DNA of 36,278 nt from a virus. The stretch's first letter is position 1; each line of letters opens with the position of its first letter. Where the stretch lies: the IMG/VR virus record IMGVR_UViG_3300006162_000032, one strand, 5' to 3'. Positions 1 through 13,002 of the stretch are shown piece by piece. Under the pieces are notes generated by a model. It made no database searches and had not been told where the DNA came from. It worked only from the letters and a program-made list of their open reading frames with translations. The position numbers and the translations under genes are program-made.

Positions 1-364
1 GCATGAATCAGTATTACTAAGCAATCAGATTCTCAGTGTCAAGGTCAATGGTGAGAAATCTCGCTGAACTTGTCACGAGGGCACTATATCTCGCTGTTCC
101 GGGGTGTTGTCCAGTAAAAAATAACATTTGAAATTGCGGATAAGACTCGGGACCTAGGCTAGACTCGACTCTATATCCCGAATCTCGTAGTCACCTCCCG
201 AATTACGTATCCTACCCAGTAACGCCTGAAATTCGCTGTAAATCTCTCAAAACGCGGGACTTAATCCCCGGGTGCCCGAAAACCTCACTTTCCTAACACT
301 TGACTTCCGGTATATAATACCCACTTTTGGCAGTGACATGTTTGCATAAAGAAAAAAAAGACGA

Positions 365-400
365 TTCACCTATATACTACTGCAAAAAAGTGGTATTATA
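365..400 (+). promoter_or_regulatory. candidate extended -10 promoter (TGgTATTAT at 391-399) for the 438-2720 operon
   Basis: TG-n-TATTAT at 391-399; weak -35; AGGAGG RBS at 421-426 before ATG 438. Confidence 0.3.
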
Positions 401-437
401 GGGCCGGTTTCGGATCGGCTAGGAGGCCGGCCCCAAA

Positions 438-1205
438 ATGTTTCAGACAAACTGGTCGAATTCGTGGGCACACCTCGGACACTCCCCGGACGAGGACCCG
501 ACGAGGCCAATGCGTTACAAACTCAGTGTCACAGGTGCAGAGGGCTATGAAGACAAGGCCCGAGTCCCGAAGCTCGACCCAGATGAGATTATCACCGACC
601 CCCTGGGCAATAAGTTCCGGCGCTCCCAGGTCACTCCCAAACATCTTCTTGCCCTGAATCTCGTGATATGGGTGGTGACCGAAGAAGAAATTAACAACCG
701 GCCCAGGATCATGCGAGGACTGCCGGTGATGGGTCCGTATCTGCCCGGCGAGTTATACGACGCCGACGATCGTCCTCACTACCATGCTTACCTGGACACG
801 TTGCTCTGCGATCGAAAGTCAAACTGGGGCAGTCGATTCCAGTCGATGGGAACGGCCGAATATGAAGATTCTACCTTTGACCCGACGATCTATAAGAAAG
901 GCGACTTTGGTACGTTTGTACCACCCGGTGTGTTATTTCCGTTGCCACCCGGATCGTCGGTACAACGCGCCCAGGTCGGATTCTTCACCATGGCCGGCCG
1001 CCGTAAGTTGTCAGTCCGTTGTGGTCGATGGGACGCGGGTCATTTACTGATCGAACGGAATAAAGAATGGTCCAGCCTGGAAATCGAGACCAAGACCCGA
1101 CGGAAGATCGAGGCTGGGCAACGCGTCAAGGATTACCTGGAACAAATGGCCGAATTACGTGAAATGATCCGGAAAGAAAAGGAGTTGATAAAATCACTAC
1201 GATGA
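438..1205 (+). CDS. hypothetical protein (255 aa)
   Basis: ORF with AGGAGG RBS; first gene of a chain coupled by ATGA/TAATG overlaps. Confidence 0.55.
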   Translation: MFQTNWSNSWAHLGHSPDEDPTRPMRYKLSVTGAEGYEDKARVPKLDPDEIITDPLGNKFRRSQVTPKHLLALNLVIWVVTEEEINNRPRIMRGLPVMGPYLPGELYDADDRPHYHAYLDTLLCDRKSNWGSRFQSMGTAEYEDSTFDPTIYKKGDFGTFVPPGVLFPLPPGSSVQRAQVGFFTMAGRRKLSVRCGRWDAGHLLIERNKEWSSLEIETKTRRKIEAGQRVKDYLEQMAELREMIRKEKELIKSLR

Positions 1206-1402
1206 ACCAGGATATTACTCGACCAATGATCAATGCTTGTATTCGAGAAACTCGCCGTCATATCAAAAGATTGAAGATGAGAAAAAACCGGGGATTGCCA
1301 AATAGGCTGAAAATACTGGAAGAACTGGCCGAGAAAGAAAAGCAATATCTGGAAGAACTGGCCGAGTTTGACAAGTTATTGGCAAAGGGGAAAACTGCAT
1401 GA
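1202..1402 (+). CDS. hypothetical small charged/coiled-coil protein (66 aa)
   Basis: ATGA overlap with upstream stop. Confidence 0.45.
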   Translation: MNQDITRPMINACIRETRRHIKRLKMRKNRGLPNRLKILEELAEKEKQYLEELAEFDKLLAKGKTA

Positions 1403-1626
1403 AAAATTCCGACGTTCCACGCTTTATCCAGAACTTTCGGGTCAAACAGGGTGGCGGGGTGCTCCCCGGCCCCGGTGTCCCGGAGCAAATCGACTTTGCC
1501 CAGTTACAGGGTAAGGCAAAGTTGTCCAGTGGCGCGTATATGAATAATGCCTTTGCCCGTGCCATTCTCAAGGCACTCCATTTCGTCGAGGGTGACGACG
1601 GCGTGTTTCACAAGGCGGTGGAGTAA
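1399..1626 (+). CDS. hypothetical protein (75 aa)
   Basis: ATGA overlap with upstream gene. Confidence 0.45.
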   Translation: MKNSDVPRFIQNFRVKQGGGVLPGPGVPEQIDFAQLQGKAKLSSGAYMNNAFARAILKALHFVEGDDGVFHKAVE

Positions 1627-1739
1627 TGCTTCATAAAGACTGGTTACTTACCGTCGATGGCCAAAGAACGCTTGCCTGGTTATTGATGCTTCAATTCTGG
1701 CAACGAGGTTACCAGAAATATTGGGGGTGGGAACGATGA
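1626..1739 (+). CDS. hypothetical 37-aa protein
   Basis: TAATG overlap upstream and ATGA overlap downstream (translational coupling); below ORF-track length cutoff. Confidence 0.3.
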   Translation: MLHKDWLLTVDGQRTLAWLLMLQFWQRGYQKYWGWER

Positions 1740-2238
1740 GCATCGTGGCATGCCGGAGGGTGGATGGCAGATTTGAAATCGCCGCCGATAGTATATTTGT
1801 ACGGGGATGGACCCAGGGAAAAGACCCATCCGTCAAGTTGTGGTGGATAGGTCAGATGATCGCCGGTTCTTGCGGCGCTATGTCATTAGGTGGTTGTTCC
1901 GCGAGTATATCGAGAATCATCAACCAAAGACTAACAACGAATGGGGTTGGATAAACTTCATGTCGGAGTTCACCAAGTATGTTGTTGGCCTGGATAACCG
2001 GATCAATTACCATGATAACGATTTCATCGTGGTGTGGCAGGGTCGCGCATTTGAAATCGACGGAACACTCACCGTCCACGAGATTACTGATTTCGCGGCC
2101 ATCGGGGCGGGTTCCGACTTCGCACTCGCCGCCCTTCACCTGGGCAAGACGGCCACCGAGGCCTGCGAAGTTGCGTGTAAATTGTCTGTTATGTGCGAGT
2201 TACCGGTGGTCACCATGTTTGATAAGGAAGGCCAATAA
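1736..2238 (+). CDS. HslV/ClpQ-like N-terminal-nucleophile (proteasome-type) peptidase, interrupted by a -1 frameshift near 1885-1905
   Basis: Frame-2 part (MSIVACRRVDGRFEIAAD...VKLWWIGQMIAGSCGAMS) aligns to the HslV N-terminus (TTIVSVRRNGHVVIAGDGQ...[24 protein letters not shown]); frame-1 part (FREYIENHQ...FAAIGAGSDFALAALHL) aligns to HslV FERKLEMHQG...IAIGSGGPYAQAAARAL; ATG 1736 overlaps the upstream stop. Confidence 0.5.
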
Positions 2239-2520
2239 TGGAATATCCCAATAAGATTTATGTTTGGTTTGACCCCGTTTCAAGTCAGTTTGAATTTGCC
2301 GCCCAAGATCAATGGGCGCAATTGGCGAAGGTCGGGCAACCGCGCCGGGGCAACCGCGCCGGGGCAACCGCGCCGGGGCAACCGCGCCGGGGCAACCGCG
2401 CCGGGGCCACGGGAGGTCGACCTCTCGGCCAACGCCACGATGATATTTGGGGAGGATGATTGGGATGATTTGCACCGCGCGGTGGAAGAGGCGCGGATGA
2501 TGTTGGAGAAGAAATCATGA
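2238..2520 (+). CDS. hypothetical protein interrupted by a frame-switching 14-bp tandem repeat (N-terminus in frame 0 from ATG 2238, C-terminus in frame 1 ending 2520)
   Basis: Good RBS (AAGGAAGG) only at ATG 2238; the frame-1 ORF (2260..) has no RBS but ends in an ATGA overlap with the next gene; five 14-bp units (70 bp) separate the two frames. Confidence 0.4.
2337..2406 (+). repeat. perfect tandem repeat (CAACCGCGCCGGGG) x5, unit 14 bp
   Basis: directly visible; unit length not a multiple of 3. Confidence 0.9.
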
Positions 2521-2720
2521 AAGACTTATTCTGGAAATTGCGAAGTTGGTTCCTGGGCCTTTGCGTGATCTGTGGCACGGAACTCGTCTTCGGCGATAAT
2601 ATCTATGAAGACATGGAAGAACATTGGTATTGCCCCAATAAGCAATGTCCAGACTCGGAACTATACGAAGGCCCAGTGGGGTCTAAAGACTCCGGGCCTT
2701 TCGACCCTACCTCAGTGTAG
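2517..2720 (+). CDS. small Zn-ribbon protein (CxxC ... CPNKQC)
   Basis: ATGA overlap with upstream gene; two Cys pairs. Confidence 0.5.
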   Translation: MKDLFWKLRSWFLGLCVICGTELVFGDNIYEDMEEHWYCPNKQCPDSELYEGPVGSKDSGPFDPTSV

Positions 2721-2782
2721 AACCGCCCGATCCGATCCTACCGAAATCCGTAGACTGTCTTCCCATTTTTAGTATCTCAGTG

Positions 2783-2798
2783 TGTCTAAATTTAGACA
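2783..2798. promoter_or_regulatory. 16-bp perfect palindrome TGTCTAAATTTAGACA (operator-like) immediately upstream of promoter
   Basis: perfect inverted repeat, AT-rich surroundings. Confidence 0.45.
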
Positions 2799-2825
2799 GT
2801 TGAAAAATGAGTGAAAAAATATTTT

Positions 2826-2854
2826 TTTTCATCAAGGCATAACTAGGTTATAAT
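2826..2854 (+). promoter_or_regulatory. candidate sigma70-type promoter (-35 TTTTCA, 17-bp spacer, -10 TATAAT at 2849-2854) with A/T-rich upstream tract
   Basis: consensus -10, spacer 17, UP-like A/T run at 2800-2830. Confidence 0.45.
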
Positions 2855-2860
2855 GGATAT

Positions 2861-4080
2861 GTCCAATCTAACGGATTATGGTTAAGGCACCAGGGAAGAC
2901 CAATAGGAGCCCTACCTGGTGACCTTGTGGATCATTGAAATCTAGATTCGGTAGTTCGGAACTGAGTCCGAGTACCCAGCAAAGCGCCTGTCACGGGACG
3001 GTCTGGGAAAAGGGAATAGGGAAAAACTGAGTACCTTCTCAGAATGAACGGCCGATTAAACCTCTACTTGACGGACACCCGTGAGATTCGAGAGAATCTA
3101 AACCCTGGGACCGAGGAAACTCCCGTCATCAGAGATCGTAAGAGAAATCCAGAAGCACGAAGGGCGATTACTGTAATATCTGCCAATCTTCAGAAAAATC
3201 CGAGATTAGAGACACTCGGGCCAACCTCAGACCCTACCGGGGACGGAGAGTCCATTGAAAACTCGTAAGAGTTTGGAACGGTTCCAACGGCGGGCGGGAG
3301 GTAAGAATATGTTGACATCCCAGTTGGCTTTAGAAGATTTAAGGCGTGGGCCAAACCCCACAGTGGAGTTCACAGGTCGTACCTCACGGTCTTCGGGAAG
3401 TCCCGGATGGCGCGATTAGTATTCTGACCGCCGGATAGGACGTACCGATTTTATCTGGTCACGCCGGAATAAGCGAAATGCGATAAAGCCAGGCGTGAAG
3501 TCCACTACGACCGAATCAGGTCCCAAGTCCTGAGCATGTAGGTTATAAAGAGTAGTGGCAAAATCTAGGTTCAAACTCCCGGCAATCGGGAGAATCTATT
3601 GACACAGAGGGCCTTGCGAGTAGGAGTCGCGAGAATCAGGTGTTTCGATAAACCTGGTTCTTAAAGTGGTGATCCCAGTTAGACTGGTTGCTAAACCCCA
3701 CGAAAAGCGAACCGAAAGACGGACGGTTGTCAACGATCTACGACCCAAGTAAGAATGTCAGAGTGCCCATCGCGGACGGTACATTCCCAAACAGTTGAGC
3801 GGCGTTATGCGCCCCGGATCAACTAGAAAGATGAAACCTTTTGGAACAGAATGCCTAAATAACTCCGGTGCACAATTTATATCGGAGTTGGGATGGTTTC
3901 CAAGATTACTGAGACAATTGTATAGTCCATAGATTACCAAGGGACTCTCCTCCCGATGGTAATCGCTGTGTATGACCGTAAGGTCATGCAGAGGGGCGAC
4001 TGTTAGTAGGGACTCTCCTCCTGAATACAGTCGTTAATGCGCCGTGGGGCGGAAAATCCAATCTGAGAATAAAACCTCTC
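2861..4080 (+). ncRNA. candidate large structured non-coding RNA (or very long structured leader); no credible ORF across 1.2 kb
   Basis: no ORF >75 aa and no SD-ATG pairs. Dense local hairpins, many with GNRA loops: AAACTC-GTAA-GAGTTT 3259-3274, ATGACC-GTAA-GGTCAT about 3971-3986, CTCCCG-GCAAT-CGGGAG about 3586-3602, CACCAGG...CCTGGTG 2889-2924. Duplicated GGGACTCTCCTCC (3943, 4009) complementary to GGAGAGTCC at 3247. Confidence 0.3.
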
Positions 4081-4149
4081 AGATTGCCATACCAAGCCAC
4101 GCCAGTCCCAAGCCTGGATAAGAGCACCGGGAACAAGGAGAGGAACACA

Positions 4150-4422
4150 ATGAAAAAACTGGTTAAGGTTAGTCTCGAAGAAATCACGATGAACTTCCTG
4201 AAAGACCCGAACTCCTGGCCACGTTGGCCTTTTCTGCCCCTGGTCCGGCGTAATGGACAGAAGCCTGATTATGCCGTCCTGGCGGAGTCAAAAGAATTTC
4301 CCTTCACTCTTTTCATAGTCAATGTGTTTGACACGGAGGCCCTGAAAAATCTAAGGGACGCGGAACAGTTGGCCTATCGCAGTTTCGAGGACATCGTGAA
4401 AGATGGTTGGGTTGTTGATTAA
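4150..4422 (+). CDS. hypothetical protein (90 aa)
   Basis: AAGGAGAGGAACACA-ATG; stop abuts family-A element. Confidence 0.5.
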   Translation: MKKLVKVSLEEITMNFLKDPNSWPRWPFLPLVRRNGQKPDYAVLAESKEFPFTLFIVNVFDTEALKNLRDAEQLAYRSFEDIVKDGWVVD

Positions 4423-4452
4423 CGAGGGCCACCTCATCTGAGGTGGTAAGTC
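4422..4452 (+). repeat. family-A intergenic stem-loop element (ACGAGGGCC + hairpin + GGTAAGT)
   Basis: conserved flanks; palindromic stem acctcatctgaggtgg; starts at last base of the stop. Confidence 0.8.
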
Positions 4453-4542
4453 CGAGATTACATCGGGCGGGGATGTATGAGTTATCCTGGTCTTTCCCAT
4501 TCGCCGTCAGGGCCAACGTTGCCTAAGTGGGCCGAGATGGTC

Positions 4543-4572
4543 AAAAGGTGAGTACTAGTTAATCACCTTTTC
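4543..4572 (+). terminator. rho-independent terminator-like hairpin (AAAAGGTGA...TCACCTTTT)
   Basis: 9-bp stem with T-run on the 3' arm. Confidence 0.45.
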
Positions 4573-4682
4573 AACCACCCGGTTCGGAACATCAGCCAAC
4601 TAACCGCGCCCAGGCCAACTGGACCCCGGAACTAACCATCCCTCCCCGCGCGGCGTGATTTCGGATTTCAAGGAGAGGAACA

Positions 4683-5090
4683 ATGAAAAAGAATGAGGTA
4701 GAAGTTGGTAAGACGTACGTCGTCAAAGTCAGTAACAAACTGGTTCCCGTCCGATTGGATTCCGTTTCCTCCTACGGAGGTTGGAATGGAACCAATCTTC
4801 GGACCAACCGCGGCGTTCGGATTCGGTCGGCGATGAAGCTGAGGAAAGAGTACGTTCCCAAACCCAAGACACCCCCGGTTGAGGCCACCGTGCCAAGTTA
4901 CGGCGGCTTTAAAGAGGGTGATCGAGTCGAACTGTCCGCGGATGAATATAATCCACGGCAGGTCGGCAAGATCGTCGAGGCGGAACGTGGGGGAATGTTC
5001 ATCGTAGAACTTGATAAAGAGTTCTGGGATGCGGATGACCATGACGGTATCCGTGAGGTTTACTTCACGGATATGAAAAAGATTGCCTGA
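4683..5090 (+). CDS. hypothetical protein (135 aa)
   Basis: AAGGAGAGGAACA-ATG. Confidence 0.6.
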   Translation: MKKNEVEVGKTYVVKVSNKLVPVRLDSVSSYGGWNGTNLRTNRGVRIRSAMKLRKEYVPKPKTPPVEATVPSYGGFKEGDRVELSADEYNPRQVGKIVEAERGGMFIVELDKEFWDADDHDGIREVYFTDMKKIA

Positions 5091-5121
5091 ACGAGGGCCG
5101 CGGATCACTCCGCGGTAAGTA
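5091..5121 (+). repeat. family-A stem-loop element
   Basis: TGA-ACGAGGGCC-gcggatcactccgcgg-TAAGT. Confidence 0.8.
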
Positions 5122-5183
5122 CAGTTAAGGGAGGAAATCCCAACAAGAGATTACATCTCTTGTTGCTGTACCAGGAGAGGAAT
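5118..5183 (+). promoter_or_regulatory. family-B-like structured leader (variant: TACAG/CTGTA P1, GGGAGGAAATCCC, AACAAGAGA...TCTCTTGTT) ending in CCAGGAGAGGAAT-ATG
   Basis: shares the 3' block GCTGTACCAGGAGAGGAA with copy at 15637-15706. Confidence 0.55.
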
Positions 5184-5447
5184 ATGGCAAGAACTTTGCA
5201 AAAAGAACAACGCACCGTCTATGTCACGACCGTACGAGTAGAGGCCCAGACGTTCGAAAAGACCAACAAAGGAACCTGGGAGTACGTCGGGCCGGGCAGT
5301 ACCGATTATGAACGGGAATACACGGCCGTGGCCAGTGAGAGTCATCACGTCGCCGAAAACATCGCCGACAAACTGGTCGACGCATTTCCTGAACTTCACC
5401 AAAAAGACCAGGACACTACTAACTGGTTCAATAACGATATTGGTTGA
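5184..5447 (+). CDS. hypothetical protein (87 aa)
   Basis: start after conserved leader; ORF-track N-terminal extension LLYQERN is the translated leader. Confidence 0.55.
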   Translation: MARTLQKEQRTVYVTTVRVEAQTFEKTNKGTWEYVGPGSTDYEREYTAVASESHHVAENIADKLVDAFPELHQKDQDTTNWFNNDIG

Positions 5448-5475
5448 CGAGGGCCACCCCACGGGGTGGTAAGTA
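5447..5475 (+). repeat. family-A stem-loop element
   Basis: ACGAGGGCC-accccacggggtgg-TAAGT. Confidence 0.8.
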
Positions 5476-5488
5476 TGGAGAGAAAACA

Positions 5489-5779
5489 ATGAAAAAGAAC
5501 CACGAACAAAGCAAAGAATTCACCAAGTTGTTGCTCGATCTGAAAGAACAGGGTTGGTCTATTTATATGAGACCGATTTTGCGAATCGTCGATGATACCT
5601 GGATACTCCGGCGGCGGTCTGATCCGTTGGAATTCCTGTTCGTCGCCGAAGACTTTCAGGTGTGGGAACGGAAGCGGTTCACCCGTGAACCGTTTGGTGA
5701 CTATACCGTGCCCTACCGCGATTTGGGTGGGGGCAAAGACCTGAAATCACTTTACCAGAACCTTACGAGGGCCGCCTGA
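5489..5779 (+). CDS. hypothetical protein (96 aa); last codons (..TRAA-stop) lie inside a family-A element
   Basis: GGAGAGAAAACA-ATG; stop TGA in hairpin loop. Confidence 0.55.
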   Translation: MKKNHEQSKEFTKLLLDLKEQGWSIYMRPILRIVDDTWILRRRSDPLEFLFVAEDFQVWERKRFTREPFGDYTVPYRDLGGGKDLKSLYQNLTRAA

Positions 5780-5793
5780 GAAGGCGGTAAGTA
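5765..5793 (+). repeat. family-A stem-loop element (stop codon of upstream gene in its loop)
   Basis: ACGAGGGCC-gcc-TGA-gaaggc-GGTAAGT. Confidence 0.75.
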
Positions 5794-5886
5794 CCGGGTC
5801 TCACCCAAGACGACAAGATCATGGTTGAGTAGTCCATGACGAGACTCCGAGCGCGTGCGGCCCGGTACTTCAAAAAGAGAGGAACA

Positions 5887-6090
5887 ATGATATATCACAT
5901 AGGACAGGAAAAAGGTGGGCGAATTAAATTCACAACGGATGTTGATTGCCTGTCTCCGCAGATCGTGAAATATACCAAAAAGAACTTCCAAAATCGGGGA
6001 GAGGTTCTATTGTTGGCCGAGGAACTGTGGAAACAGGGTCATGAAACCTGCGTTGATGATGAGGTTGGTTTGGTGGAGTTGGAACACTAA
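5887..6090 (+). CDS. hypothetical protein (67 aa)
   Basis: AAAAGAGAGGAACA-ATG; upstream 90-nt leader forms 10-bp helix AAGTACCGGG/CCCGGTACTT. Confidence 0.45.
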   Translation: MIYHIGQEKGGRIKFTTDVDCLSPQIVKYTKKNFQNRGEVLLLAEELWKQGHETCVDDEVGLVELEH

Positions 6091-6118
6091 CGAGGGCCGC
6101 CCGGTCGGGCGGTAAGTG
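6090..6118 (+). repeat. family-A stem-loop element
   Basis: TAA-CGAGGGCC-gcccggtcgggc-GGTAAGT. Confidence 0.8.
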
Positions 6119-6237
6119 ACGGGTCGGTTCGATTCCACTCGCCCGCGCCTAGTAAGGGTGTGTGTTTGTTGAGTCCCCTTCGAACGGCCAGTTGCAAGGA
6201 TGACGTCGATCCGTCACTTACCAAGGAGAGGAACAAA

Positions 6238-6549
6238 ATGACTTACAAAAGAAAAAAGTTGATTGTACTTCCGGAACGTCTCTTTCGTCAAAAGATCGAG
6301 GCGCAATTGGCAAAGGTTATCAATGCGGTCGAAGTCGCCCATGGTGAGGCGATGAGTCTCAGTATCATTGCCGAGGACCAGACCACGGCCCTGGACAATG
6401 ATCCCGAGGCACTGTCCCCGAAAAACAAACGGGCTTATAACCTGGCCGAGGATGTTTTGGAATGGGCGCAGGCCGTCGAGGAACTGTTGGATGGGGTGGA
6501 TACCGGGGCAATCCGGGCCAAGCTCAAAAAAGCAACGAGGGCCGCCTGA
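6238..6549 (+). CDS. hypothetical protein (103 aa); C-terminus ..ATRAA encoded by a truncated family-A copy
   Basis: AAGGAGAGGAACAAA-ATG; 12-bp helix GGTAAGTGACGG (6111-6122)/CCGTCACTTACC (6213-6224) abuts the SD. Confidence 0.5.
   Translation: MTYKRKKLIVLPERLFRQKIEAQLAKVINAVEVAHGEAMSLSIIAEDQTTALDNDPEALSPKNKRAYNLAEDVLEWAQAVEELLDGVDTGAIRAKLKKATRAA
6535..6549 (+). repeat. truncated family-A element (ACGAGGGCCGCCTGA) inside coding 3' end
   Basis: identical to the 5' half of the copy at 5765. Confidence 0.6.
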
Positions 6550-6557
6550 TGGCCAAA

Positions 6558-6590
6558 ACGAGGGCCGACTCAAAAATGAGTCGGTAAGTA
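6558..6590 (+). repeat. family-A stem-loop element
   Basis: ACGAGGGCC-gactcaaaaatgagtc-GGTAAGT. Confidence 0.8.
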
Positions 6591-6603
6591 CAAGGAGCGT
6601 AAT

Positions 6604-6846
6604 ATGCCAAAACTTTCGAAGGGTCAGATCGCCAACTTCCGAACATTGTCGAACGCCAATCACAACGACCGACTTTGTTTAATCGACTGCCAGGATAAGT
6701 CCACCGGAAAGTCGGTGGCCGTCGTGGCGGCGTTGAACATAGTCGGGAAAGAAATTGAGATTATTCCGTTGGCAAAGTTGTTCGACGGTAATCCCTATGA
6801 TGAGTTACTGCCGCCCAATCCGGACGGTGGTTATCATCAAGATTGA
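6604..6846 (+). CDS. hypothetical protein (80 aa)
   Basis: AAGGAGCGTAAT-ATG. Confidence 0.55.
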   Translation: MPKLSKGQIANFRTLSNANHNDRLCLIDCQDKSTGKSVAVVAALNIVGKEIEIIPLAKLFDGNPYDELLPPNPDGGYHQD

Positions 6847-6876
6847 ACGAGGGCGGTCACCCCGGTGACCGTAAGT
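6847..6876 (+). repeat. family-A stem-loop element
   Basis: ACGAGGGC-ggtcaccccggtgacc-GTAAGT. Confidence 0.8.
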
Positions 6877-6891
6877 ACAAAGGAGAACAAA

Positions 6892-7167
6892 ATGTTTGAA
6901 ACAAATGTCGACGACTTTCACAAAGAACAAGAGGCCGCAAAACGGGCCACCGGGGTCAATTATCGAGATGCTTTGGAATTGGCGATCGCGGCCCTGCAAA
7001 GAGCCGGGGAGGCAAAGTCAGAATCGGCGGTGTTAAATCATATCGACTCGGCCTTACTGGAAGTCGGGGTCGGTGTGCATCTGATGCACACCATACCCCG
7101 GCAGTTGTCTCCGTTTCGGACAAAGTCGGTCATGCAGTTGCTTGGAAGAATGGGAGTTGAAAAATAA
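6892..7167 (+). CDS. hypothetical protein (91 aa)
   Basis: AAAGGAGAACAAA-ATG. Confidence 0.55.
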   Translation: MFETNVDDFHKEQEAAKRATGVNYRDALELAIAALQRAGEAKSESAVLNHIDSALLEVGVGVHLMHTIPRQLSPFRTKSVMQLLGRMGVEK

Positions 7168-7197
7168 ACGAGGGCCGGGTTGAAAACCCGGTAAGTA
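7168..7197 (+). repeat. family-A stem-loop element
   Basis: ACGAGGGCC-gggttgaaaaccc-GGTAAGT. Confidence 0.8.
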
Positions 7198-7209
7198 CAG
7201 GAGAAAAAC

Positions 7210-7446
7210 ATGGAAAATGAATTTTCTGTTTGCCAATTTTTTCCGGATGGCGCCTATGAATATGTGAGACGATTTGTGGGGCCGGAAGAGGCGGTGAAGG
7301 CGTTCCAACACTATACCCATTCGGTGGGCGCCCGCCTGGGCACCACCGTGCGGGTCATTATCACCGACGGCGGCGATATGACAAACATGGAATGGAAGTT
7401 TGGGAAGGGTATCACCTTCCCCGCGGGGCAACACTTTAAACAGTAG
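7210..7446 (+). CDS. hypothetical protein (78 aa)
   Basis: CAGGAGAAAAAC-ATG. Confidence 0.55.
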   Translation: MENEFSVCQFFPDGAYEYVRRFVGPEEAVKAFQHYTHSVGARLGTTVRVIITDGGDMTNMEWKFGKGITFPAGQHFKQ

Positions 7447-7447
7447 T

Positions 7448-7477
7448 ACGAGGGCGGTCACTTCGGTGGCCGTAAGT
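7448..7477 (+). repeat. family-A stem-loop element
   Basis: ACGAGGGC-ggtcacttcggtggcc-GTAAGT. Confidence 0.8.
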
Positions 7478-7492
7478 GCAAAGGAGATAACG

Positions 7493-7774
7493 ATGACTGA
7501 AAAAGATCACCCCGACGATATCTTAAAAGAATTGGGGTTTGTACAAACATATCCCAGAAAATCCGAGGGTGATACCAGATATTTTCGTGGCGAGGCAAGT
7601 GACCGCACCGCGATGATTATATGGTATTCCCAGGACGAGGGCACCGCCGGAATTCGTTACATCGACAACGGTAAAAGGGCAGGTCGACATATTTGGATCG
7701 GGTCATACTCAATTCTGGCCGATATGTTGGTCAAACTTAAAACAAATGGATTTTTTACGAGGGCCATTCCGTGA
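7493..7774 (+). CDS. hypothetical protein (93 aa); C-terminus FTRAIP-stop encoded inside family-A element
   Basis: AAAGGAGATAACG-ATG. Confidence 0.55.
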   Translation: MTEKDHPDDILKELGFVQTYPRKSEGDTRYFRGEASDRTAMIIWYSQDEGTAGIRYIDNGKRAGRHIWIGSYSILADMLVKLKTNGFFTRAIP

Positions 7775-7786
7775 GGAGTGGTAAGT
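7757..7786 (+). repeat. family-A stem-loop element (stop TGA in GNRA-like loop GTGA)
   Basis: ACGAGGGCC-attcc-GTGA-ggagtg-GTAAGT. Confidence 0.75.
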
Positions 7787-7810
7787 CCAAATATGGACTA
7801 AGGAGAACCA

Positions 7811-8020
7811 ATGAAACTTTCACTTCGAGAAGCATTGGCAAAGATGTACACCCCCGAAGTCGCAGAAAATCTCGAGAAAATTGACCTGGAAGAATATCGC
7901 CGGGGTGGCCGAGAAGGTCTCAAGAGTTTTCTTGAAATTAATGACACTTCTCTTTCCACCACAGAAATTGATCTTCTTCTCGATCTAACCGCCGAACAAG
8001 TGGAGAATGCCCATGCGTAA
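7811..8020 (+). CDS. hypothetical acidic protein (69 aa)
   Basis: AAGGAGAACCA-ATG; leader hairpin GTCCAAATATGGAC. Confidence 0.55.
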   Translation: MKLSLREALAKMYTPEVAENLEKIDLEEYRRGGREGLKSFLEINDTSLSTTEIDLLLDLTAEQVENAHA

Positions 8021-8138
8021 ACAAATTTGGCGGACGTTCCGTAAACATATCTGGACGGCGTTGTTTATCGCGGCAATGGCCGGTGTATTCATCATCCTGG
8101 AGGCCGCGTTGACGATTCCGTCGGGGCCGGGGCAGTAA
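8013..8138 (+). CDS. hypothetical 41-aa membrane peptide
   Basis: ATG overlaps upstream stop by 8 nt; hydrophobic core; below ORF-track cutoff. Confidence 0.35.
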   Translation: MRKQIWRTFRKHIWTALFIAAMAGVFIILEAALTIPSGPGQ

Positions 8139-8141
8139 GCA

Positions 8142-8170
8142 ATGAGGGCCGCCCACCTTGGGCGGTAAGT
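8142..8170 (+). repeat. family-A stem-loop element (variant ATGAGGGCC)
   Basis: ATGAGGGCC-gcccaccttgggc-GGTAAGT. Confidence 0.7.
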
Positions 8171-8197
8171 CCAAATATGGACTAAAAGGAGAACAAT

Positions 8198-8530
8198 ATG
8201 TCGGTATTGACTGACGAGACAGTAAACATTTTGGATCAATTAACTGACCGGGATGAGGCCTTCATCGGGGCCATCTCGGCAACGCAGGCCATGTCTGAAA
8301 CTCTCGTTTGGTCACACCGTATGAACTACAACCAGGAAGATATGGAAGGGGTTCTTGACGAGGCGGTCGACAACTGGACTGGGTGGACCGAGGATGAGTA
8401 CCGGGATTTTATCAAGACGTATGATGAGACGCTCAAAAAGGCCGCCTATGATGGTTTGAGACAAACCTTGGAAGATTGCCTTCGGGCTTTTCACCTAAAT
8501 AAAAACTCTTCCGTGGGTTTAACACGGTAG
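8198..8530 (+). CDS. hypothetical protein (110 aa)
   Basis: AAAAGGAGAACAAT-ATG; same leader hairpin GTCCAAATATGGAC as gene 7811. Confidence 0.55.
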   Translation: MSVLTDETVNILDQLTDRDEAFIGAISATQAMSETLVWSHRMNYNQEDMEGVLDEAVDNWTGWTEDEYRDFIKTYDETLKKAAYDGLRQTLEDCLRAFHLNKNSSVGLTR

Positions 8531-8531
8531 C

Positions 8532-8562
8532 ACAGAGGGTCGGACGATAAGTCCGGTAATGG
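8532..8562 (+). repeat. family-A stem-loop element (ACAGAGGG variant, 3' flank GGTAATGG fused to family-B leader)
   Basis: ACAGAGGGT-cggacgataagtccg-GTAATGG. Confidence 0.7.
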
Positions 8563-8626
8563 CAATGAGGGAAAACCTCAGAACTGAACGGTACCCGTTC
8601 AGTTTGCCATACCAGGAGAGGAACAT
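8556..8626 (+). promoter_or_regulatory. family-B structured 5' leader (three-way junction: ATGGCAA/TTGCCAT P1, GAGGG-AAAA-CCTC P2, variable P3) ending in ACCAGGAGAGGAACAT-ATG
   Basis: P1 and P3 complementarity; P3 = GAACTGAACGG/CCGTTCAGTT. Confidence 0.6.
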
Positions 8627-8821
8627 ATGAACATCGTAAGGAATTTGGCGCCACTTTGGCCGCTGCTGTTACTGTTGCTACTTTTTTCGTGGCTTGCGCG
8701 TCCCGCCGAGGCGTCCTCCCGCGGTAGCAGGGGACATCACCGTTCGGCGGTGGCAAGTTGGCCAAAAAGTACTCACGGTCACTCTCACTTCCCGCACAAA
8801 CCGGTAAAAACGAGAGGATAA
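8627..8821 (+). CDS. hypothetical protein with N-terminal signal-peptide-like Leu run (64 aa)
   Basis: start after family-B leader. Confidence 0.45.
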   Translation: MNIVRNLAPLWPLLLLLLLFSWLARPAEASSRGSRGHHRSAVASWPKSTHGHSHFPHKPVKTRG

Positions 8822-8822
8822 C

Positions 8823-9065
8823 ATGTCAATACGATTGATTATCAAAGGCGACAAAGAAACCGCCCTGGTCGAGGCCTCCCTCGCAGATATCCGGCAGTAT
8901 AACTTTGTAAAGGAAAATCTGCAATCGGACGGTGAGACCAAGTATACCGAGGCACTCGCATCAGACGCCGATCTGGAACGGGTTGCCATCTGGTTCACGA
9001 AACAAAAACACGAGGAGGTTCCCTATCCACCGGGGACACTTCTTTGGTACCAGTTTGTTCCTTAG
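8823..9065 (+). CDS. hypothetical protein (80 aa)
   Basis: GAGGATAAC-ATG, 1-nt gap after upstream stop. Confidence 0.5.
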   Translation: MSIRLIIKGDKETALVEASLADIRQYNFVKENLQSDGETKYTEALASDADLERVAIWFTKQKHEEVPYPPGTLLWYQFVP

Positions 9066-9069
9066 TGAT

Positions 9070-9101
9070 ACGAGGGCATCCCCGGAAACGGGGGTGTAAG
9101 T
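9070..9101 (+). repeat. family-A stem-loop element
   Basis: ACGAGGGC-atccccggaaacgggggtg-TAAGT. Confidence 0.75.
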
Positions 9102-9134
9102 CCGATGAATCGGGCTTATACAGGAGAAGAACAA

Positions 9135-10697
9135 ATGAATCACCAAGAAATGTTGAAGTCGTTCTTGGCAGTTGAAGCGATGAAGTCGTACAACGTCGTT
9201 AGTCCAATAATGTTATCCAATCCGATATCCGTGTTAAAACGTATGACGCGCGATAAAGGTTGGAGTAACCAGGCCATTGTTGAAATGGGCCGTCGGAAAA
9301 TGCTGGGAAAGTTTCTGGGAAGTTACGTCTTGCGTAATGTTTCCGGAGATGAAATATACCAAAAATTTCCGGTGTTGGATTATTTGGGTGAAGTTTCGTT
9401 GTTCTCGAAACCCGCCGACTGTGTTACTTACCGGGGAACGCCCGAGCAAAATCAAGTAATTGATCGCGCCTTGGCCGTCTCTCCGGTAAATACTTCCAAT
9501 AATTTTTTTGGGAGTGGTATCGCCGGACGTTTGTCCACGTTTTATAACGTGATCAATTTGGACATTGGGAACACACCCATTGCCATCATCGGTGGTGGGG
9601 CGGCGGGCCAAATTGTACGATATGGCCTGAGTCGCACCGGATTTAAAAATGTAACTCTTTATGAAAAGGGCAAACCATTTGGAATCTGGTCACGGGAAGA
9701 TATCAAAGGCGGGAGTCGAAACAATCCTCGTAGATTGGTCCTGGGCGAGTATGCCCTGGAACCGGCGCCCGGCGAAGGATCGGAGGTACGGGATTTTCTG
9801 CAAAATATCCAGAACGCCAATTCATTAAACGTTATCACCAACGACGTCACCACGGTTACTCCGAACAATCTTGCCCACGGGGTTTATGACCGTGGTCAAA
9901 GTTTTAAGGAGTACCCCATCGTCATCAACTGCCTGGGACTGGGAAAACCGAAAAACCTCTCGGATCGCCACCGTATGGTGACATCTGCGGAGGTCACCCA
10001 CGCCGGTAACCGTTGGCAAAAGCGCCTCACTTACCCGCAAATTAAGGGAAAGAAATTTCTCTTTATTGGCCTGGGAAACTCTACCGCCGAGATGCTCCGG
10101 CAACTTCACGATGCCCAGGATCGAGGAATTGATACCGATTATTCGGTATTGACCCACTATCCCAAGGACTCCGTATTTAATCCGGATGATTACATCATCC
10201 AAAAAAACACGAAGTACCGGGTATTTCGTGATCTTTCTGCCTCGAACCTGGTAGATTACGAGGGCGATCTTCCCCAGAACCGGGCCGATTACTACCGGGC
10301 ACTGCGGACGGGGCGCATCGTGTCAGATGTCACCGGGTGGGACCGGATCATAAAAGACTTTGTGATCCGGCGGGGTCGTTCCCAGACCGAAACCAAAGTG
10401 GATGAGTTTTATAACCTGACCGGTTATGAGAATCGCCCCGACGATCTGGTGAACTTCGGTTGCAGTTTCCGGCACAATGAAATGCAATACGACTACGACG
10501 GAGAAATTCAAAAGTCTCCCGGACTGGCCGACCCGGAACTCCGGTTGCACAAAGGTTACTTTGGGTTTGGCGCCCTTCTGGGAACCTCCCACAACCCCAA
10601 CGCGATCGTGATTCCGGGTATGTTGCACCGCCTGGGCGACCTGTTGTTCGGGGTCATCGTGCGGTCTATGGAGTACAAAGAAAAACAGAACGACTAA
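9135..10697 (+). CDS. FAD/NAD(P)-binding oxidoreductase with two dinucleotide-binding motifs (flavin monooxygenase-like)
   Basis: IAIIGGGAAGQIV (GxGxxG) and FLFIGLGNSTAEML (second Rossmann, PvdA/IucD-like GxGxSxAE); CAGGAGAAGAACAA-ATG. Confidence 0.7.
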   Translation: MNHQEMLKSFLAVEAMKSYNVVSPIMLSNPISVLKRMTRDKGWSNQAIVEMGRRKMLGKFLGSYVLRNVSGDEIYQKFPVLDYLGEVSLFSKPADCVTYRGTPEQNQVIDRALAVSPVNTSNNFFGSGIAGRLSTFYNVINLDIGNTPIAIIGGGAAGQIVRYGLSRTGFKNVTLYEKGKPFGIWSREDIKGGSRNNPRRLVLGEYALEPAPGEGSEVRDFLQNIQNANSLNVITNDVTTVTPNNLAHGVYDRGQSFKEYPIVINCLGLGKPKNLSDRHRMVTSAEVTHAGNRWQKRLTYPQIKGKKFLFIGLGNSTAEMLRQLHDAQDRGIDTDYSVLTHYPKDSVFNPDDYIIQKNTKYRVFRDLSASNLVDYEGDLPQNRADYYRALRTGRIVSDVTGWDRIIKDFVIRRGRSQTETKVDEFYNLTGYENRPDDLVNFGCSFRHNEMQYDYDGEIQKSPGLADPELRLHKGYFGFGALLGTSHNPNAIVIPGMLHRLGDLLFGVIVRSMEYKEKQND

Positions 10698-10727
10698 CGA
10701 GGGTGGGTCACTTCGGTGACCCGTAAG
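10697..10727 (+). repeat. family-A stem-loop element
   Basis: ACGAGGGT-gggtcacttcggtgaccc-GTAAG. Confidence 0.75.
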
Positions 10728-10761
10728 ACCAATCAAATCTTTAAATAGGAGAGGAATTAAC

Positions 10762-11172
10762 ATGAAATGGATTGAATTGCTGCGGGAGATTGCCAAAGAA
10801 ATCAACAAAAATTCGTCACCGACGGATGTACTAGACCGGGGTGGCGACAATCTCTACAAAATATCACAGGGGAAGGCCCTATGGTGGGTTCTTTCGGCGT
10901 TGCGCGGTCCGGATGAACAGAACTCGCAAAATGGCATCAGCGACCATGATGCCAAATGGGCGACGACCGAGGTAATCCGAGGCCGTCTTGGCCTATGGGA
11001 GAACGGTAATCAGGCCAGTTGTTTATCTAGTACCTCCGATACGGCAGATAAGCTGGAACTCCGCAAACGGATAGTCACCACGGGGGATAACCATTTTGGT
11101 TATCACGCCCGGATGGCCTTTCACGTTTTGGGCCTGAAATGGGATGAGGTCAATAAAATCGAACCCATTTAA
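10762..11172 (+). CDS. hypothetical protein (136 aa)
   Basis: ATAGGAGAGGAATTAAC-ATG. Confidence 0.55.
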   Translation: MKWIELLREIAKEINKNSSPTDVLDRGGDNLYKISQGKALWWVLSALRGPDEQNSQNGISDHDAKWATTEVIRGRLGLWENGNQASCLSSTSDTADKLELRKRIVTTGDNHFGYHARMAFHVLGLKWDEVNKIEPI

Positions 11173-11193
11173 CAAGATGTAGTGTCCCTGATA

Positions 11194-11223
11194 ACGAGGG
11201 CCACGGAGAAATCCGTGGTAAGT
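11194..11223 (+). repeat. family-A stem-loop element
   Basis: ACGAGGGCC-acggagaaatccgtgg-TAAGT. Confidence 0.8.
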
Positions 11224-11241
11224 ACAAGGAGAGAATTTCAA

Positions 11242-11478
11242 ATGAACCGACAAAATGTAGAAAAAACCAAGAAAAGATTGGAAGAACTAGGAGTCATCTC
11301 CCTAAATGAACTGCGCACACGCCTGGCTAAAAAGGGTGTGTCGCCGAATATACCGCTCACCACGGCCATGGTGAAACATGTTGAAAGTTACCCCCGGCCG
11401 GAGGAAGTCGTGGCCATGGGACTGGCGATGATTATGTACGGAATGATCAAGATGGAAAGGCGAGGGAACCCCCTCTGA
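11242..11478 (+). CDS. hypothetical protein (78 aa)
   Basis: CAAGGAGAGAATTTCAA-ATG; stop TGA lies in loop of hairpin AACCCCC-TCTGA-GGGGGTT. Confidence 0.5.
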   Translation: MNRQNVEKTKKRLEELGVISLNELRTRLAKKGVSPNIPLTTAMVKHVESYPRPEEVVAMGLAMIMYGMIKMERRGNPL

Positions 11479-11498
11479 GGGGGTTTAAGGAGGGAAAT

Positions 11499-11741
11499 AT
11501 GACAACACAAGTGGGAATGATCGAGGTAGATTCGACCAATATCCAAAGTATCGGATATGACGTGCTGCGGCGGATTCTGTACGTAAGATTCCTGACCGGC
11601 CGCATGTATCGTTACTTTGGCGTAGGTCCCCTGACCTTCGGCCGCTTTCAACGGGCACATTCCAAGGGTCGTTTTTTCTACCAGTTCGTTCGATATCGTT
11701 ACAAGTATGAATTGGTGGAAAACGGCCGGAGGGTGGCATGA
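11499..11741 (+). CDS. hypothetical protein (80 aa)
   Basis: TAAGGAGGGAAAT-ATG. Confidence 0.55.
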   Translation: MTTQVGMIEVDSTNIQSIGYDVLRRILYVRFLTGRMYRYFGVGPLTFGRFQRAHSKGRFFYQFVRYRYKYELVENGRRVA

Positions 11742-11914
11742 GATGGCGGGTCAAGTACGAAACTGTACTGGAGGCAGAAAACCGCACCCAGGCGGTTCTT
11801 TTGGCGGAGTCTTTAATTCCAGAGAAATATTCTAAAGGGATGAAATACACCGTCGAGTTTATTGATCTTGATGAAGAGATGACAGAGGAAGAATATTCAG
11901 AGGGCGCCGGGTGA
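11738..11914 (+). CDS. hypothetical acidic 58-aa protein
   Basis: ATGA overlap with upstream stop; stop TGA in loop of following hairpin; below ORF-track cutoff. Confidence 0.35.
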   Translation: MRWRVKYETVLEAENRTQAVLLAESLIPEKYSKGMKYTVEFIDLDEEMTEEEYSEGAG

Positions 11915-11925
11915 TCCCCGGCGTT
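11898..11925 (+). repeat. family-A-like stem-loop (CAGAGGGCG-ccgggTGAtccccgg-CG)
   Basis: variant lacking GGTAAGT; stop codon in loop. Confidence 0.5.
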
Positions 11926-11947
11926 ACGACCAAATAAAGGAGAAACA

Positions 11948-12214
11948 ATGACAGTAGATAATATTGATGTATACCCGATCGTCGGATGTGAAAAATATCC
12001 GGAGGTTCGGGAAGCAGGTTATTTGGTATGTGAACATGTCGGTAACCCCGGCGACGTGGAGTTTTTTGAGCCGGCCACCGAAACTTCCATGGGCGTAATC
12101 AGTTGCAAGAGTTGTCCTGAAGAAACCGACCCAAAAAGACAAATATATCACTTCTCGGTCAGTTGTGCGTCCTGCCTACGATCGGCGGGGTTTATTCCGA
12201 TTACTGTTCAATAA
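11948..12214 (+). CDS. Cys-rich (Zn-binding-like) hypothetical protein (88 aa)
   Basis: AAAGGAGAAACA-ATG; CxxxxxxxxxC, CKSC, CASC motifs. Confidence 0.5.
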   Translation: MTVDNIDVYPIVGCEKYPEVREAGYLVCEHVGNPGDVEFFEPATETSMGVISCKSCPEETDPKRQIYHFSVSCASCLRSAGFIPITVQ

Positions 12215-12242
12215 CAGAGGGCCACGGGAAACCGTGGTAACG
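12214..12242 (+). repeat. family-A stem-loop element (ACAGAGGG variant)
   Basis: ACAGAGGGCC-acgggaaaccgtgg-TAACG. Confidence 0.75.
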
Positions 12243-12301
12243 CACTCGTCCCTCCAGGCCGTGCGTTGGAAGCAAATTTGTTCGTGATAGGAGAGATTCA
12301 A

Positions 12302-12592
12302 ATGAAAAGTCAAAAGAAGCCCGTGCAGTCTGCAACGGGACGACAGTTTTACGCGCTGGTTGCAAAACCGAAGGTGGATATCACCAAATTAAAACCCCAT
12401 ACCCACGCCGGCGCCACCGTATTGGCCATTAAGAAACTCAAAAAGGCCACGAGTGGCGAGGTCATCGCCGAGGTTAAACGCCAGGGTAAATTGGCGACGA
12501 CGATGCCCGTCGAACAGGCAATTCACTACCAACTGTTCGATCTTGCCAAACGGCGGGGAGTCTTAAAAGTCATGCCAAAGCGGGCGGCATGA
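12302..12592 (+). CDS. small basic protein, paralog of 21962..22372 globular domain (putative nucleic-acid binding)
   Basis: HAGATVLAIKKLKKATSGEVIAEVKRQGKLAT vs HPGAVVHALRKLGEGTRNDVIVEVEKQGKIET. Confidence 0.5.
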   Translation: MKSQKKPVQSATGRQFYALVAKPKVDITKLKPHTHAGATVLAIKKLKKATSGEVIAEVKRQGKLATTMPVEQAIHYQLFDLAKRRGVLKVMPKRAA

Positions 12593-12611
12593 ATAATTCA
12601 TAATGTGGTAA

Positions 12612-12643
12612 ACGAGGGCCGGCCCAGTCATGGGCCGGTAAGT
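12612..12643 (+). repeat. family-A stem-loop element
   Basis: ACGAGGGCC-ggcccagtcatgggcc-GGTAAGT. Confidence 0.8.
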
Positions 12644-12658
12644 ACAAAGGAGAAAACA

Positions 12659-12841
12659 ATGCCAAGAGTAAAACCCGCCAGTCGGGATCGCATTATTTTA
12701 ATCCCCTGCCCTCGTTGCCGGGCCGGGTCTAATGAATTTTGCTTTCGCCAAACAGATTCTAAAAAAGAACCGATGTCAAATTTTGTTCATTCTGTTCGGG
12801 TTCGCGCCTATCATAAGGCGACCAGAGATGAAAAACAATGA
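12659..12841 (+). CDS. small Zn-ribbon-like protein (60 aa; CPRC...C)
   Basis: AAAGGAGAAAACA-ATG. Confidence 0.45.
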   Translation: MPRVKPASRDRIILIPCPRCRAGSNEFCFRQTDSKKEPMSNFVHSVRVRAYHKATRDEKQ

Positions 12842-12953
12842 CGAAGAGGAGCCTCAACATGGTTGGATCGCCACGATGATTGGGGCGGTAATCGTTGGGT
12901 TTTCGATTACCGGGGTCATCTTGATGGTTCAATGGTTTATAACGCGTCACTAA
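12828..12953 (+). CDS. hypothetical 41-aa membrane peptide
   Basis: overlaps 3' end of previous gene; TM segment IGAVIVGFSITGVILMV; stop abuts family-A element. Confidence 0.3.
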   Translation: MKNNDEEEPQHGWIATMIGAVIVGFSITGVILMVQWFITRH

Positions 12954-12983
12954 CGAGGGCCACGGGGGTAACCCGTGGTAAGT
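12953..12983 (+). repeat. family-A stem-loop element
   Basis: ACGAGGGCC-acgggggtaacccgtgg-TAAGT. Confidence 0.8.
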
Positions 12984-13002
12984 ACAAAGGAGAACGACAA
13001 AG

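Follow-up and report, generated by a model that had tools for sequence, protein, structure and literature searches.

How a stretch of more than 1 kb that seems to encode no protein is used by a virus with gene-dense DNA is the question raised by positions 2783–4149 of IMG/VR record IMGVR_UViG_3300006162_000032. This record, a DNA of 36,278 nt (the window, hereafter), is part of an uncultured phage genome in which every gene is located on the + strand. The initial annotation of the region proposed a large structured non-coding RNA, possibly a new member of the GOLLD, ROOL or HEARO kind, transcribed from an operator-guarded promoter. The analysis presented here indicates that the region is real as an RNA-level element but was misclassified as a giant ornate RNA. 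It is probably the control region and the long untranslated leader of a phage early operon, and this leader would end in a self-cleaving twister ribozyme. Moreover, the leader seems to head a ribozyme-derived operon-punctuation system, because the upper half of the ribozyme recurs in each of the next 34 intergenic gaps.

A Predicted Complete Twister Ribozyme at the 3′ End of the Leader

Nowhere in the window does an Rfam family attain its gathering score. A permissive Rfam scan of 2600–4300 returned two matches to RF02684, the type-P5 twister, and one noise match, so that the cmscan comparison recommended in the initial annotation does lead to a known RNA class, below the gathering score. The first match, at 3987–4117 (30.0 bits, E 7e-4 in the local scan), extends over model positions 1–58 end to end and includes every conserved base of the family, namely GCAGAGGG, UAAUGC-GC, and GUCCCAAGCC.

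The predicted complete ribozyme occupies 3987–4125 on the + strand and lies within 3930–4150, a segment that folds with a z-score of −5.19, z-scores here and below being relative to dinucleotide shuffles. It is composed of P2b GCA (3988–3990), L1 GAGGG (3991–3995), an 8-bp P1 (3996–4003 with 4027–4034) with a 23-nt loop that bears the second copy of AGGGACUCUCCUCC, the predicted cleavage site between U4035 and A4036, followed by A4037, P2a UGC (4038–4040), the T2 partner GC (4041–4042), a P3 formed by a self-contained hairpin of 59 nt (4043–4101), P4 CCAG-UCCCAAGC-CUGG (4102–4117), and the linker AUAAGAG (4118–4124). GAGGG lies opposite UAA and is flanked directly by P1 and P2, and the P4 hairpin carries the conserved L4 loop, UCCCAAGC. 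The complementarity for both predicted loop pairings is also present, between the CCC of L4 and the GGG of L1 in T1, and between the GC at 4041–4042 and G4112 and C4113 in T2, and the latter, a GC-to-C pairing, obeys the covariation rule of 140 phage twisters described below.

The deficit in score can be put down to two insertions, the P1 loop of 23 nt and the P3 of 59 nt, each of which closes into a hairpin in the modelled fold. P3 hairpins are found at this place in 78% of twisters (PMC5408937) and also in phage twisters from IMG/VR, such as that at 9157 of contig L222; a search of IMG/VR with the pattern of this ribozyme, its P3 included, gave no match. Since all the conserved bases match, the deficit comes from insertions that fold closed, and P3 is common in twisters, 3987–4125 reads as a complete twister, a somewhat ornate new member of the known class. 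Its predicted cleavage site is 114 nt before the start codon of the first gene of the block (4150–4422, + strand), which is preceded by the Shine–Dalgarno (SD) sequence AAGGAGAGG (4135–4143) and encodes a protein of 90 aa without homologues.

Half-Twister Elements in the Early Gene Block

The heptamer GGTAAGT is located upstream of many genes (22 occurrences vs. 2.9 expected), and the alignment of these sites revealed a conserved element, (A)AC-GAGGG-hairpin-UAA-GU(AC), with a hairpin of 6–9 bp. A structural search of both strands identified 35 copies, all on the + strand, between 3991 and 21027, the first one being the upper half of the complete twister. The remaining 34 (4424–21027, + strand) are found one per intergenic gap, each 2–5 nt past a stop codon and 10–40 nt before the next SD, which in the genes of the block is mostly a strong one of the AAGGAGAG type. 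With the half-element model, two degenerate copies are also placed on the + strand (11894–11933 and 14288–14328) and nothing is detected outside 3985–21034; likewise, no GAGGG-hairpin-UAA elements are present in the 9.5 kb upstream or the 25 kb downstream of 3991–21027.

None of the 35 copies deviates from GAGGG or from UAA. P1 is paired at 95.9% of its positions and shows compensatory changes at all 7 pairs, exceeding all the shuffle and slide controls, and the 2-bp P2 of the half-elements covaries as well, AC/GU alternating with CA/UG. To judge from its sequence, the element would be exactly the P2b-L1-P1-L1-P2a portion of a twister. The Rfam twister model detects several half-elements unaided, with 18–30 bits, and with model R2, which derives from 50 phage twisters, their alignment is confined to positions 5–32 (L1, P1, and UAA). 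According to both Rfam and R2, the P4/L4 hairpin is absent in cis from all 34 half-elements. In fact, within about 55 kb of the phage no UCCCAAG hairpins are found besides those at 3517–3532 and 4102–4117, both in the leader. Because P4/L4 and the T1/T2 partners are missing in cis, the 34 elements are best described as twister-derived halves and not as members of the class. Searches of IMG/VR, JGI metagenomes, and GTDB genomes with the half-element pattern returned single chance matches and no multi-copy locus.

In addition, a conserved GC-AAUG-AGGGGAAACCUCA mini-hairpin comes after four or five of the half-twisters (8565–8580, 16007–16022, 17465–17480, and 19389–19404, with a variant near 13264). 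This mini-hairpin (4 occurrences vs. 0.45 expected) resembles the twister linker followed by a P4-like stem, with a GAAA-like loop instead of UCCCAAGY.

Twister Arrays in Other Phages

When IMG/VR was searched with a generic twister core, arrays of complete type-P5 twisters turned up in many phage contigs. IMGVR_UViG_3300027896_000024 contains 15 complete twisters in 9.4 kb (L222, 8904–18290), one per intergenic gap and each followed by AAAGGAGAGAACAACAUG, and its array is preceded by a terminator, a TTGACA-17-TAATAT promoter, and about 650 nt without any ORF (open reading frame) on the + strand. Further contigs (L258, L245, L281, L299, L285, L301, and L242) carry 5–15 complete type-P5 twisters, one before each early gene, and Rfam reports 43 Twister-P5 matches above the gathering score in five such loci. 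Among 140 phage twisters, T2 joins the dinucleotide AC to U in 82, GC to C in 35, and GC to U in 10, with no A-C; counted as base pairs, there are 82 A-U, 42 G-C, 11 G-U, and 0 A-C.

These RF02684 arrays and the window share the same order of parts, P2b-GAGGG-P1 hairpin-UAA-P2a-T2 dinucleotide-(P3)-P4 with the loop UCCCAAGY, as well as the placement after a stop codon and before an SD and start codon, the strand of the genes, and the AAGGAGAG style of SD. One of them, that of IMGVR_UViG_3300027896_000024, also resembles the window in having a sigma70 promoter and a long ORF-free leader, and no sequence similarity was detected between the two leaders. Nevertheless, the window differs from the arrays in that only its first element is complete, with a 23-nt P1 loop, a 59-nt P3, and a sub-threshold score, whereas the other 34 have lost P4/L4 and an extra P2-P4 module without L1 is present in the leader. 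In the sampled arrays a P4 in cis accompanies every true top half, and the split layout of top half and P4 occurs in none of them. Since arrays of complete twisters sit at the same intergenic position in other phages, a promoter, a leader, and a twister before every early gene seem to constitute a recurring phage design, of which the window would be a derived version where the first twister alone is whole.

Promoter and Coding Capacity of the Leader

The near-consensus sigma70 promoter with a 17-bp spacer noticed in the initial annotation was confirmed as TTTTCA-17-TATAAT (2826–2854, + strand; 10/12 match), preceded by an A/T-rich tract and with a predicted start at about 2861. Only three matches of at least 10/12 exist on the + strand of the 36-kb window, and this is the sole one upstream of the ribozyme-punctuated gene block. 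The perfect 16-bp palindrome TGTCTAAATTTAGACA (2783–2798, on neither strand in particular) is also present and unique within the window, where 0.08 copies are expected by chance, and no related sites at up to 3 mismatches are found in the window or in contigs L111 and L114. A dimeric DNA-binding protein may recognise it. However, to describe the promoter as guarded by an operator goes beyond the data, as the palindrome lies about 28 bp upstream of the −35 element, with its centre at about −70, some 70 bp before the predicted start, and does not overlap the core promoter.

That the region contains no credible ORF is borne out by gene callers, codon scores, and an SD survey. Gene callers leave 2721–4149 empty on four independent contigs. 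A codon log-odds test, for which 31 long genes of the window served as training set and the minus strand as null (mean −0.09, sd 0.11), places all the ORFs of the region at background (−0.25 to +0.05), and a sliding coding score over 3 frames does not exceed 0.05 over about 2700–4050, the longest such stretch within 1–9000. The ATG at 3309 is the only start in the region with an SD (GGGAGG, 7 nt upstream); its ORF (3309–3419, 36 codons, score −0.11) is annotated by no gene caller, and translation of a leader micro-ORF there is possible. The 74-aa ORF at 3044–3268, correctly described before as devoid of a ribosome-binding site, has no SD and a borderline codon score of +0.05. A minus-strand gene starting from 3940 behind GGAGGAGAG was rejected (codon score −0.13, all genes being on the + strand), as were a tRNA or tmRNA in the region, with no ARAGORN match, and iterons or an origin, since just short two-copy repeats were found besides the duplication of the loops.

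The region is thus read as a non-coding RNA-level element on the + strand, with a predicted untranslated leader RNA of about 1175 nt (2861–4035) from the promoter to the ribozyme cleavage site, in which no coding signal was found. Identical contigs aside, no homologues of the leader appeared in the data searched. Although the region is non-coding, as stated in the initial annotation, its lack of ORFs is less exceptional than was claimed for such a gene-dense locus, because the window has other non-coding gaps, such as 4423–4682. This gap, located after the first gene of the block, has 260 nt, is strongly structured (z −4.15), and contains a terminator-like hairpin, AAAAGGUGA...UCACCUUUU (4543–4571), at which the first transcription unit could terminate or be attenuated. 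Low folding z-scores (−4.1 to −5.4) are also observed over 4801–5175, which comprises the 3′ part of ORF 4683–5090 and the next gap.

Structured Parts of the Leader

The hairpins listed in the initial annotation do exist (AAACUC-GUAA-GAGUUU at 3259–3274, AUGACC-GUAA-GGUCAU at 3972–3987, and CUCCCG-GCAAU-CGGGAG at 3576–3592), but the description of the region as hairpin-dense holds for two segments only, 3436–3605 (z −2.65, and −3.3 in a 150-nt window) and 3930–4150 (z −5.19, the strongest of the region). Elsewhere, over 935 of about 1290 nt or about 75%, the region folds no better than shuffles: z is −0.94 for 2861–3437 (577 nt), where 23 of 100 shuffles fold equally well, and −1.03 for 3573–3930, which behaves like shuffles.

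The first structured segment holds domain 1 (3438–3572, + strand), a predicted three-way junction with a closing helix P6 of 12 bp (3438–3452 with 3560–3572), the hairpin P1′ (3460–3465 with 3492–3497), a perfect 7-bp P2, CCACUAC/GUAGUGG (3502–3508 with 3552–3558), and P4 CAGG-UCCCAAGU-CCUG (3517–3532; L4 loop at 3521–3528), which is preceded by GACC-GAAU and followed by a linker ending in AUAAAGA before P2b. The minimum free energy fold reproduces P6, P1′, P2, and P4. The second RF02684 match (3494–3532, 22.9 bits) corresponds to the P2/P4 part only, that is, P4 and its flanks, and model R2 matches 3516–3533 with 17.1 bits over model positions 41–58. No GAGGG is present in domain 1; its cleavage-side strand is AAGU, and the strand from P2b to P1 is broken by helix P6 and reads C...AUCUGGU. 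Self-cleavage of domain 1 is therefore considered unlikely, and the domain appears to be a canonical twister lower half (P2-L2-P4) that lacks the catalytic loop, with an arm that presumably resembles the rice type-P1 twister. Farther downstream, ACA-GAGGG-CCUUGCGA..UCGCGAG-AAU (3604–3640, + strand) is a weak candidate for a degenerate top half, which model R1 does not detect at E<10. Domain 1 and 3604–3640 taken together as a type-P1, type-P3, or non-circularly permuted twister were rejected, as the required helices are unpaired.

In the second segment, the ribozyme is preceded by hairpin A (3932–3964, + strand), recognised by folding and repeat analysis, with an 8-bp stem and a 17-nt loop that exposes AGGGACUCUCCUCC, a pyrimidine-rich, anti-SD-like sequence, and by hairpin B (3972–3987, + strand), the AUGACC-GUAA-GGUCAU already mentioned, which has a GNRA loop and adjoins P2 of the ribozyme. 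The duplicated element of the initial annotation corresponds to AGGGACUCUCCUCC, found at 3940–3953 and 4008–4021, in hairpin loops in both cases; direct repeats of 17 nt with no more than 1 mismatch arise in 0.5% of shuffles, so this duplication is significant. By contrast, the claimed complementarity of the duplicate to GGAGAGUCC (3245–3253) upstream is at chance level, since it amounts to 13 nt and such a pair occurs in 61% of shuffles. Seven nucleotides of the AGGGACUCUCCUCC loops (CUCUCCU) are complementary to AGGAGAG, the extended-SD core of gene 4150 and several genes of the block. These loops could act in translation control, or as a decoy for ribosomes or proteins.

Proposed Mechanism and Alternative Explanations

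In the mechanism that we propose, the host RNA polymerase would start near 2861 and transcribe a non-coding RNA of about 1.17 kb, followed by the complete type-P5 twister, which would fold P1, P2, P3, and P4 and pair L4 with the GGG of L1 (T1) and with the GC at 4041–4042 (T2). Self-cleavage between U4035 and A4036 would then release the leader with a 2′,3′-cyclic phosphate behind the P1 hairpin and leave the mRNA of gene 4150 with a 5′-OH end and a 114-nt untranslated region (UTR). The fallback suggestion of the initial annotation, a very long regulatory leader for gene 4150, comes close to what the evidence indicates, except for the punctuation of the genes that follow. The role of the 5′ 1.1 kb would most likely include supplying the P4/L4 module that is missing from the downstream half-elements.

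Several observations weigh against this proposal. The score of the twister, 30.0 bits, is below the Rfam gathering score of 37.6; its P2 has just 3 bp and a P5 helix is not evident; and orthologues of the locus were not found, all the contigs being 100% identical, hence there is no covariation for this copy. The terminator-like hairpin at 4543–4571 places the status of the 17-kb block as a single transcript in doubt, and three phage proteins, the pair flanking the leader and the sigma factor of the block, are without homologues. Furthermore, the two leaders share no sequence and several of the other arrays have no long leader, so that the 5′ 1.1 kb perhaps has no conserved role. This last point leads to an alternative that we consider rather unlikely, in which the 5′ 1.1 kb is functionless in itself and consists of decayed early genes or ribozymes, or of spacer, domain 1 and 3604–3640 being relics. 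The absence of excess structure in 2861–3437 and 3573–3930 fits this explanation, as do the remnant-like appearance of the SD and 36-aa ORF at 3309, of the 74-aa ORF at 3044 (+0.05), and of the degenerate top half at 3604–3640, and the lack of sequence conservation with the leader of the other phage. Nevertheless, given the compactness of phage genomes, it would be unusual for the earliest transcript to begin with 1.1 kb of junk; domain 1, with its perfect 7-bp P2, consensus L4, canonical linkers, and 12-bp closing helix, looks maintained; the 14-nt AGGGACUCUCCUCC is duplicated exactly in two hairpin loops; and a distantly related phage also keeps an ORF-free leader of about 650 nt.

The half-elements might instead be protein sites, recognised by an endoribonuclease, an RNA-binding protein, or a phage sigma factor that uses CGAGGG-17 nt-GTAAGT as a promoter, with the 3′ element of the leader being merely twister-like. 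CGAGGG and GTAAGT are separated by 17 nt, as in sigma70-type promoters, a sigma factor is encoded in the block (17764–19113), and the half-elements do not have the parts needed for their own cleavage. We regard this explanation as improbable, since the hairpin sequence is free to vary as long as pairing is kept, which points to a single-stranded RNA structure and not to a double-stranded DNA promoter, and the conserved unpaired bases are exactly those of twister L1, to the extent that the Rfam twister model detects elements alone. Moreover, a consensus P4/L4 with the correct T1 and T2 partners is attached to the first copy, the chance of finding GUCCCAAGCC within 150 nt of any copy being about 0.004 as estimated from sequence lengths, and in related phages this position is taken by complete twisters. 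Even less credit can be given to a single, globally folded ornate RNA over about 2861–4080. This region does resemble GOLLD, ROOL, and HEARO in its phage setting and its predicted long non-coding transcript, and the long ORF-free stretch, the several GNRA-capped hairpins, and the strong local structure at the 3′ end are in favour of such an RNA. However, no covariance-model or ARAGORN match was obtained for GOLLD, ROOL, HEARO, OLE, group I/II introns, RNase P, tmRNA, or tRNA, the Rfam search for large families being negative even with E up to 10, and neither a global excess of structure nor homologues were found. Most of the region folds like shuffles, the proposed long-range pairing is at chance level, and the twister modules account for the structured parts.

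Possible Cooperation of Leader and Half-Twisters in Trans

The twister-terminated leader that we favour admits an extension, which can be held only tentatively. The released domain 1 and/or the 5′ UTR fragment with the cis P4 would dock by T1 (CCC/GGG) on the 34 half-elements and complete their active sites. The leader could then be, though we would sooner doubt than assume it, the shared trans catalytic cofactor of a natural split, multiple-turnover twister, which would convert the early polycistronic RNA into monocistronic mRNAs with 5′-OH and 3′ hairpin/cyclic-phosphate ends. The numbers of parts are consistent with this idea, as 35 top halves coexist with just the 2 P4/L4 hairpins of the leader, whereas each true top half in the other sampled arrays has P4 in cis. 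GAGGG and UAA have remained invariant in the 35 copies while P1 has diverged with compensation, and the invariance of the active-site and T1 bases alongside a drifting P1 implies selection on exactly those bases. In addition, domain 1 is a self-closed P2-L2-P4 module without a catalytic loop of its own, and the second GCA of the cis ribozyme (4123–4125) could close P2 likewise after cleavage.

A 3-bp kissing loop enables the VS ribozyme to recognise its hairpin substrate in trans, and the 3′ UTRs of mammalian Clec2 carry a split hammerhead. In these systems, as in the arrangement considered here, the parts of the core lie far apart or on separate domains and are joined by few tertiary or kissing pairs. 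However, the Clec2 ribozymes are single cis transcripts and VS has one substrate helix, whereas here one or two modules would serve 34 putative substrate sites. A further parallel is provided by the RNase III sites that lie between the early genes of phage T7, which are long irregular duplexes cut by a host protein. Like them, the half-elements are hairpins between consecutive early genes, and their cleavage would leave a protective 3′ hairpin on the upstream message; unlike them, they have the conserved unpaired bases of a ribozyme active site and hairpins of 6–9 bp only.

Twisters are known to function as bimolecular constructs (PMC5408937). Nevertheless, the intermolecular pairs would be limited to between 3 (T1) and 5 (T1+T2), the P2 of the half-elements has only 2 bp, and a T2-competent AC/GC dinucleotide is kept in just 15 of the 34. 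Guide-like pairing of the leader with the conserved tails of the half-elements was rejected, as the best duplexes (−11 to −13 kcal/mol) are those expected by chance for 1.3 kb. The arrangement was not found in a second genome, whether in IMG/VR, JGI metagenomes, or GTDB genomes, and searches for twister permutations other than the standard ones have given no candidates (PMC10085705). In the accessible literature we found no natural trans-acting twister, which also counts against the extension, nor any report of half-twisters or of phage twister arrays, of which an earlier description is possible, since the primary discovery papers were outside the search.

Genome Setting

Contigs of 71.7 and 99.5 kb from ENA, JGI, and Logan assemblies are near-identical to the window, with 100% identity across the region of interest and differences elsewhere of a 1-nt and a ~10-nt indel. 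All the contigs that encode the flanking proteins are clonal, the locus being 100% identical in every one. DNA searches for near and distant relatives among GenBank phages gave no match to this phage, and the three proteins compared (the two that flank the leader and the sigma factor inside the block) had only self-matches among 5.8 billion protein clusters. Searches of IMG/VR with three proteins gave no match either. In contrast, the SNF2 helicase and other replication proteins are common to the window and some of the twister-array phages, with 25–45% identity.

The phage encodes a sigma factor, an SNF2 helicase, DNA polymerase A, thymidylate synthases, and a T4 Rnl1-like RNA ligase. The latter (24308–25456, 47 bits) is found in the window together with a calcineurin-like phosphoesterase (26607–27212), a C5 DNA methylase (23139–24311), and an Acb2/Tad1-like protein (25457–25843). 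RNA end-healing and end-sealing enzymes are notable in a phage that is predicted to make many 5′-OH and cyclic-phosphate RNA ends. A protein with a major-vault-protein shoulder domain is split in the window by the 1-nt indel (27422–28873 and 28807–29976) and is a single 851-aa ORF on the 99.5-kb contig (L114, 2276–4831). The ~10-nt indel, in a short tandem duplication at 2334–2407 within gene 2260–2520, separates the window from the ENA contig and one JGI contig (L001, L111, L113). Finally, an 86-nt segment, 95% identical, forms an inverted repeat about 28 kb apart (25391–25476 of the window and 7163–7247 of L111).

Significance for Phage Twisters

The biological role of bacterial and phage twisters has been described as unknown or speculative (PMC6765202, PMC5408937), and the processing of polycistronic transcripts by self-cleaving ribozymes located near phage genes has merely been suggested (PMC6765202). 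In the locus analysed here and in the IMG/VR arrays, a single strong promoter is followed by early genes with one twister in each gap between them, which makes a role in operon punctuation directly testable. As far as can be read from the sequence, the single whole ribozyme and the 34 halves would form, together with the two scaffold modules of the 1.2-kb leader, a variant system that we did not find described. The phage would offer a natural dissection of the twister, with 34 substrate-like halves and two scaffold halves confined to the leader. If the halves do not cooperate, the invariant half-elements will need another explanation, such as a new RNA–protein recognition system. If they do, this would be the first natural trans-acting twister and a compact model of RNA-only operon processing, with a clear use in synthetic biology.

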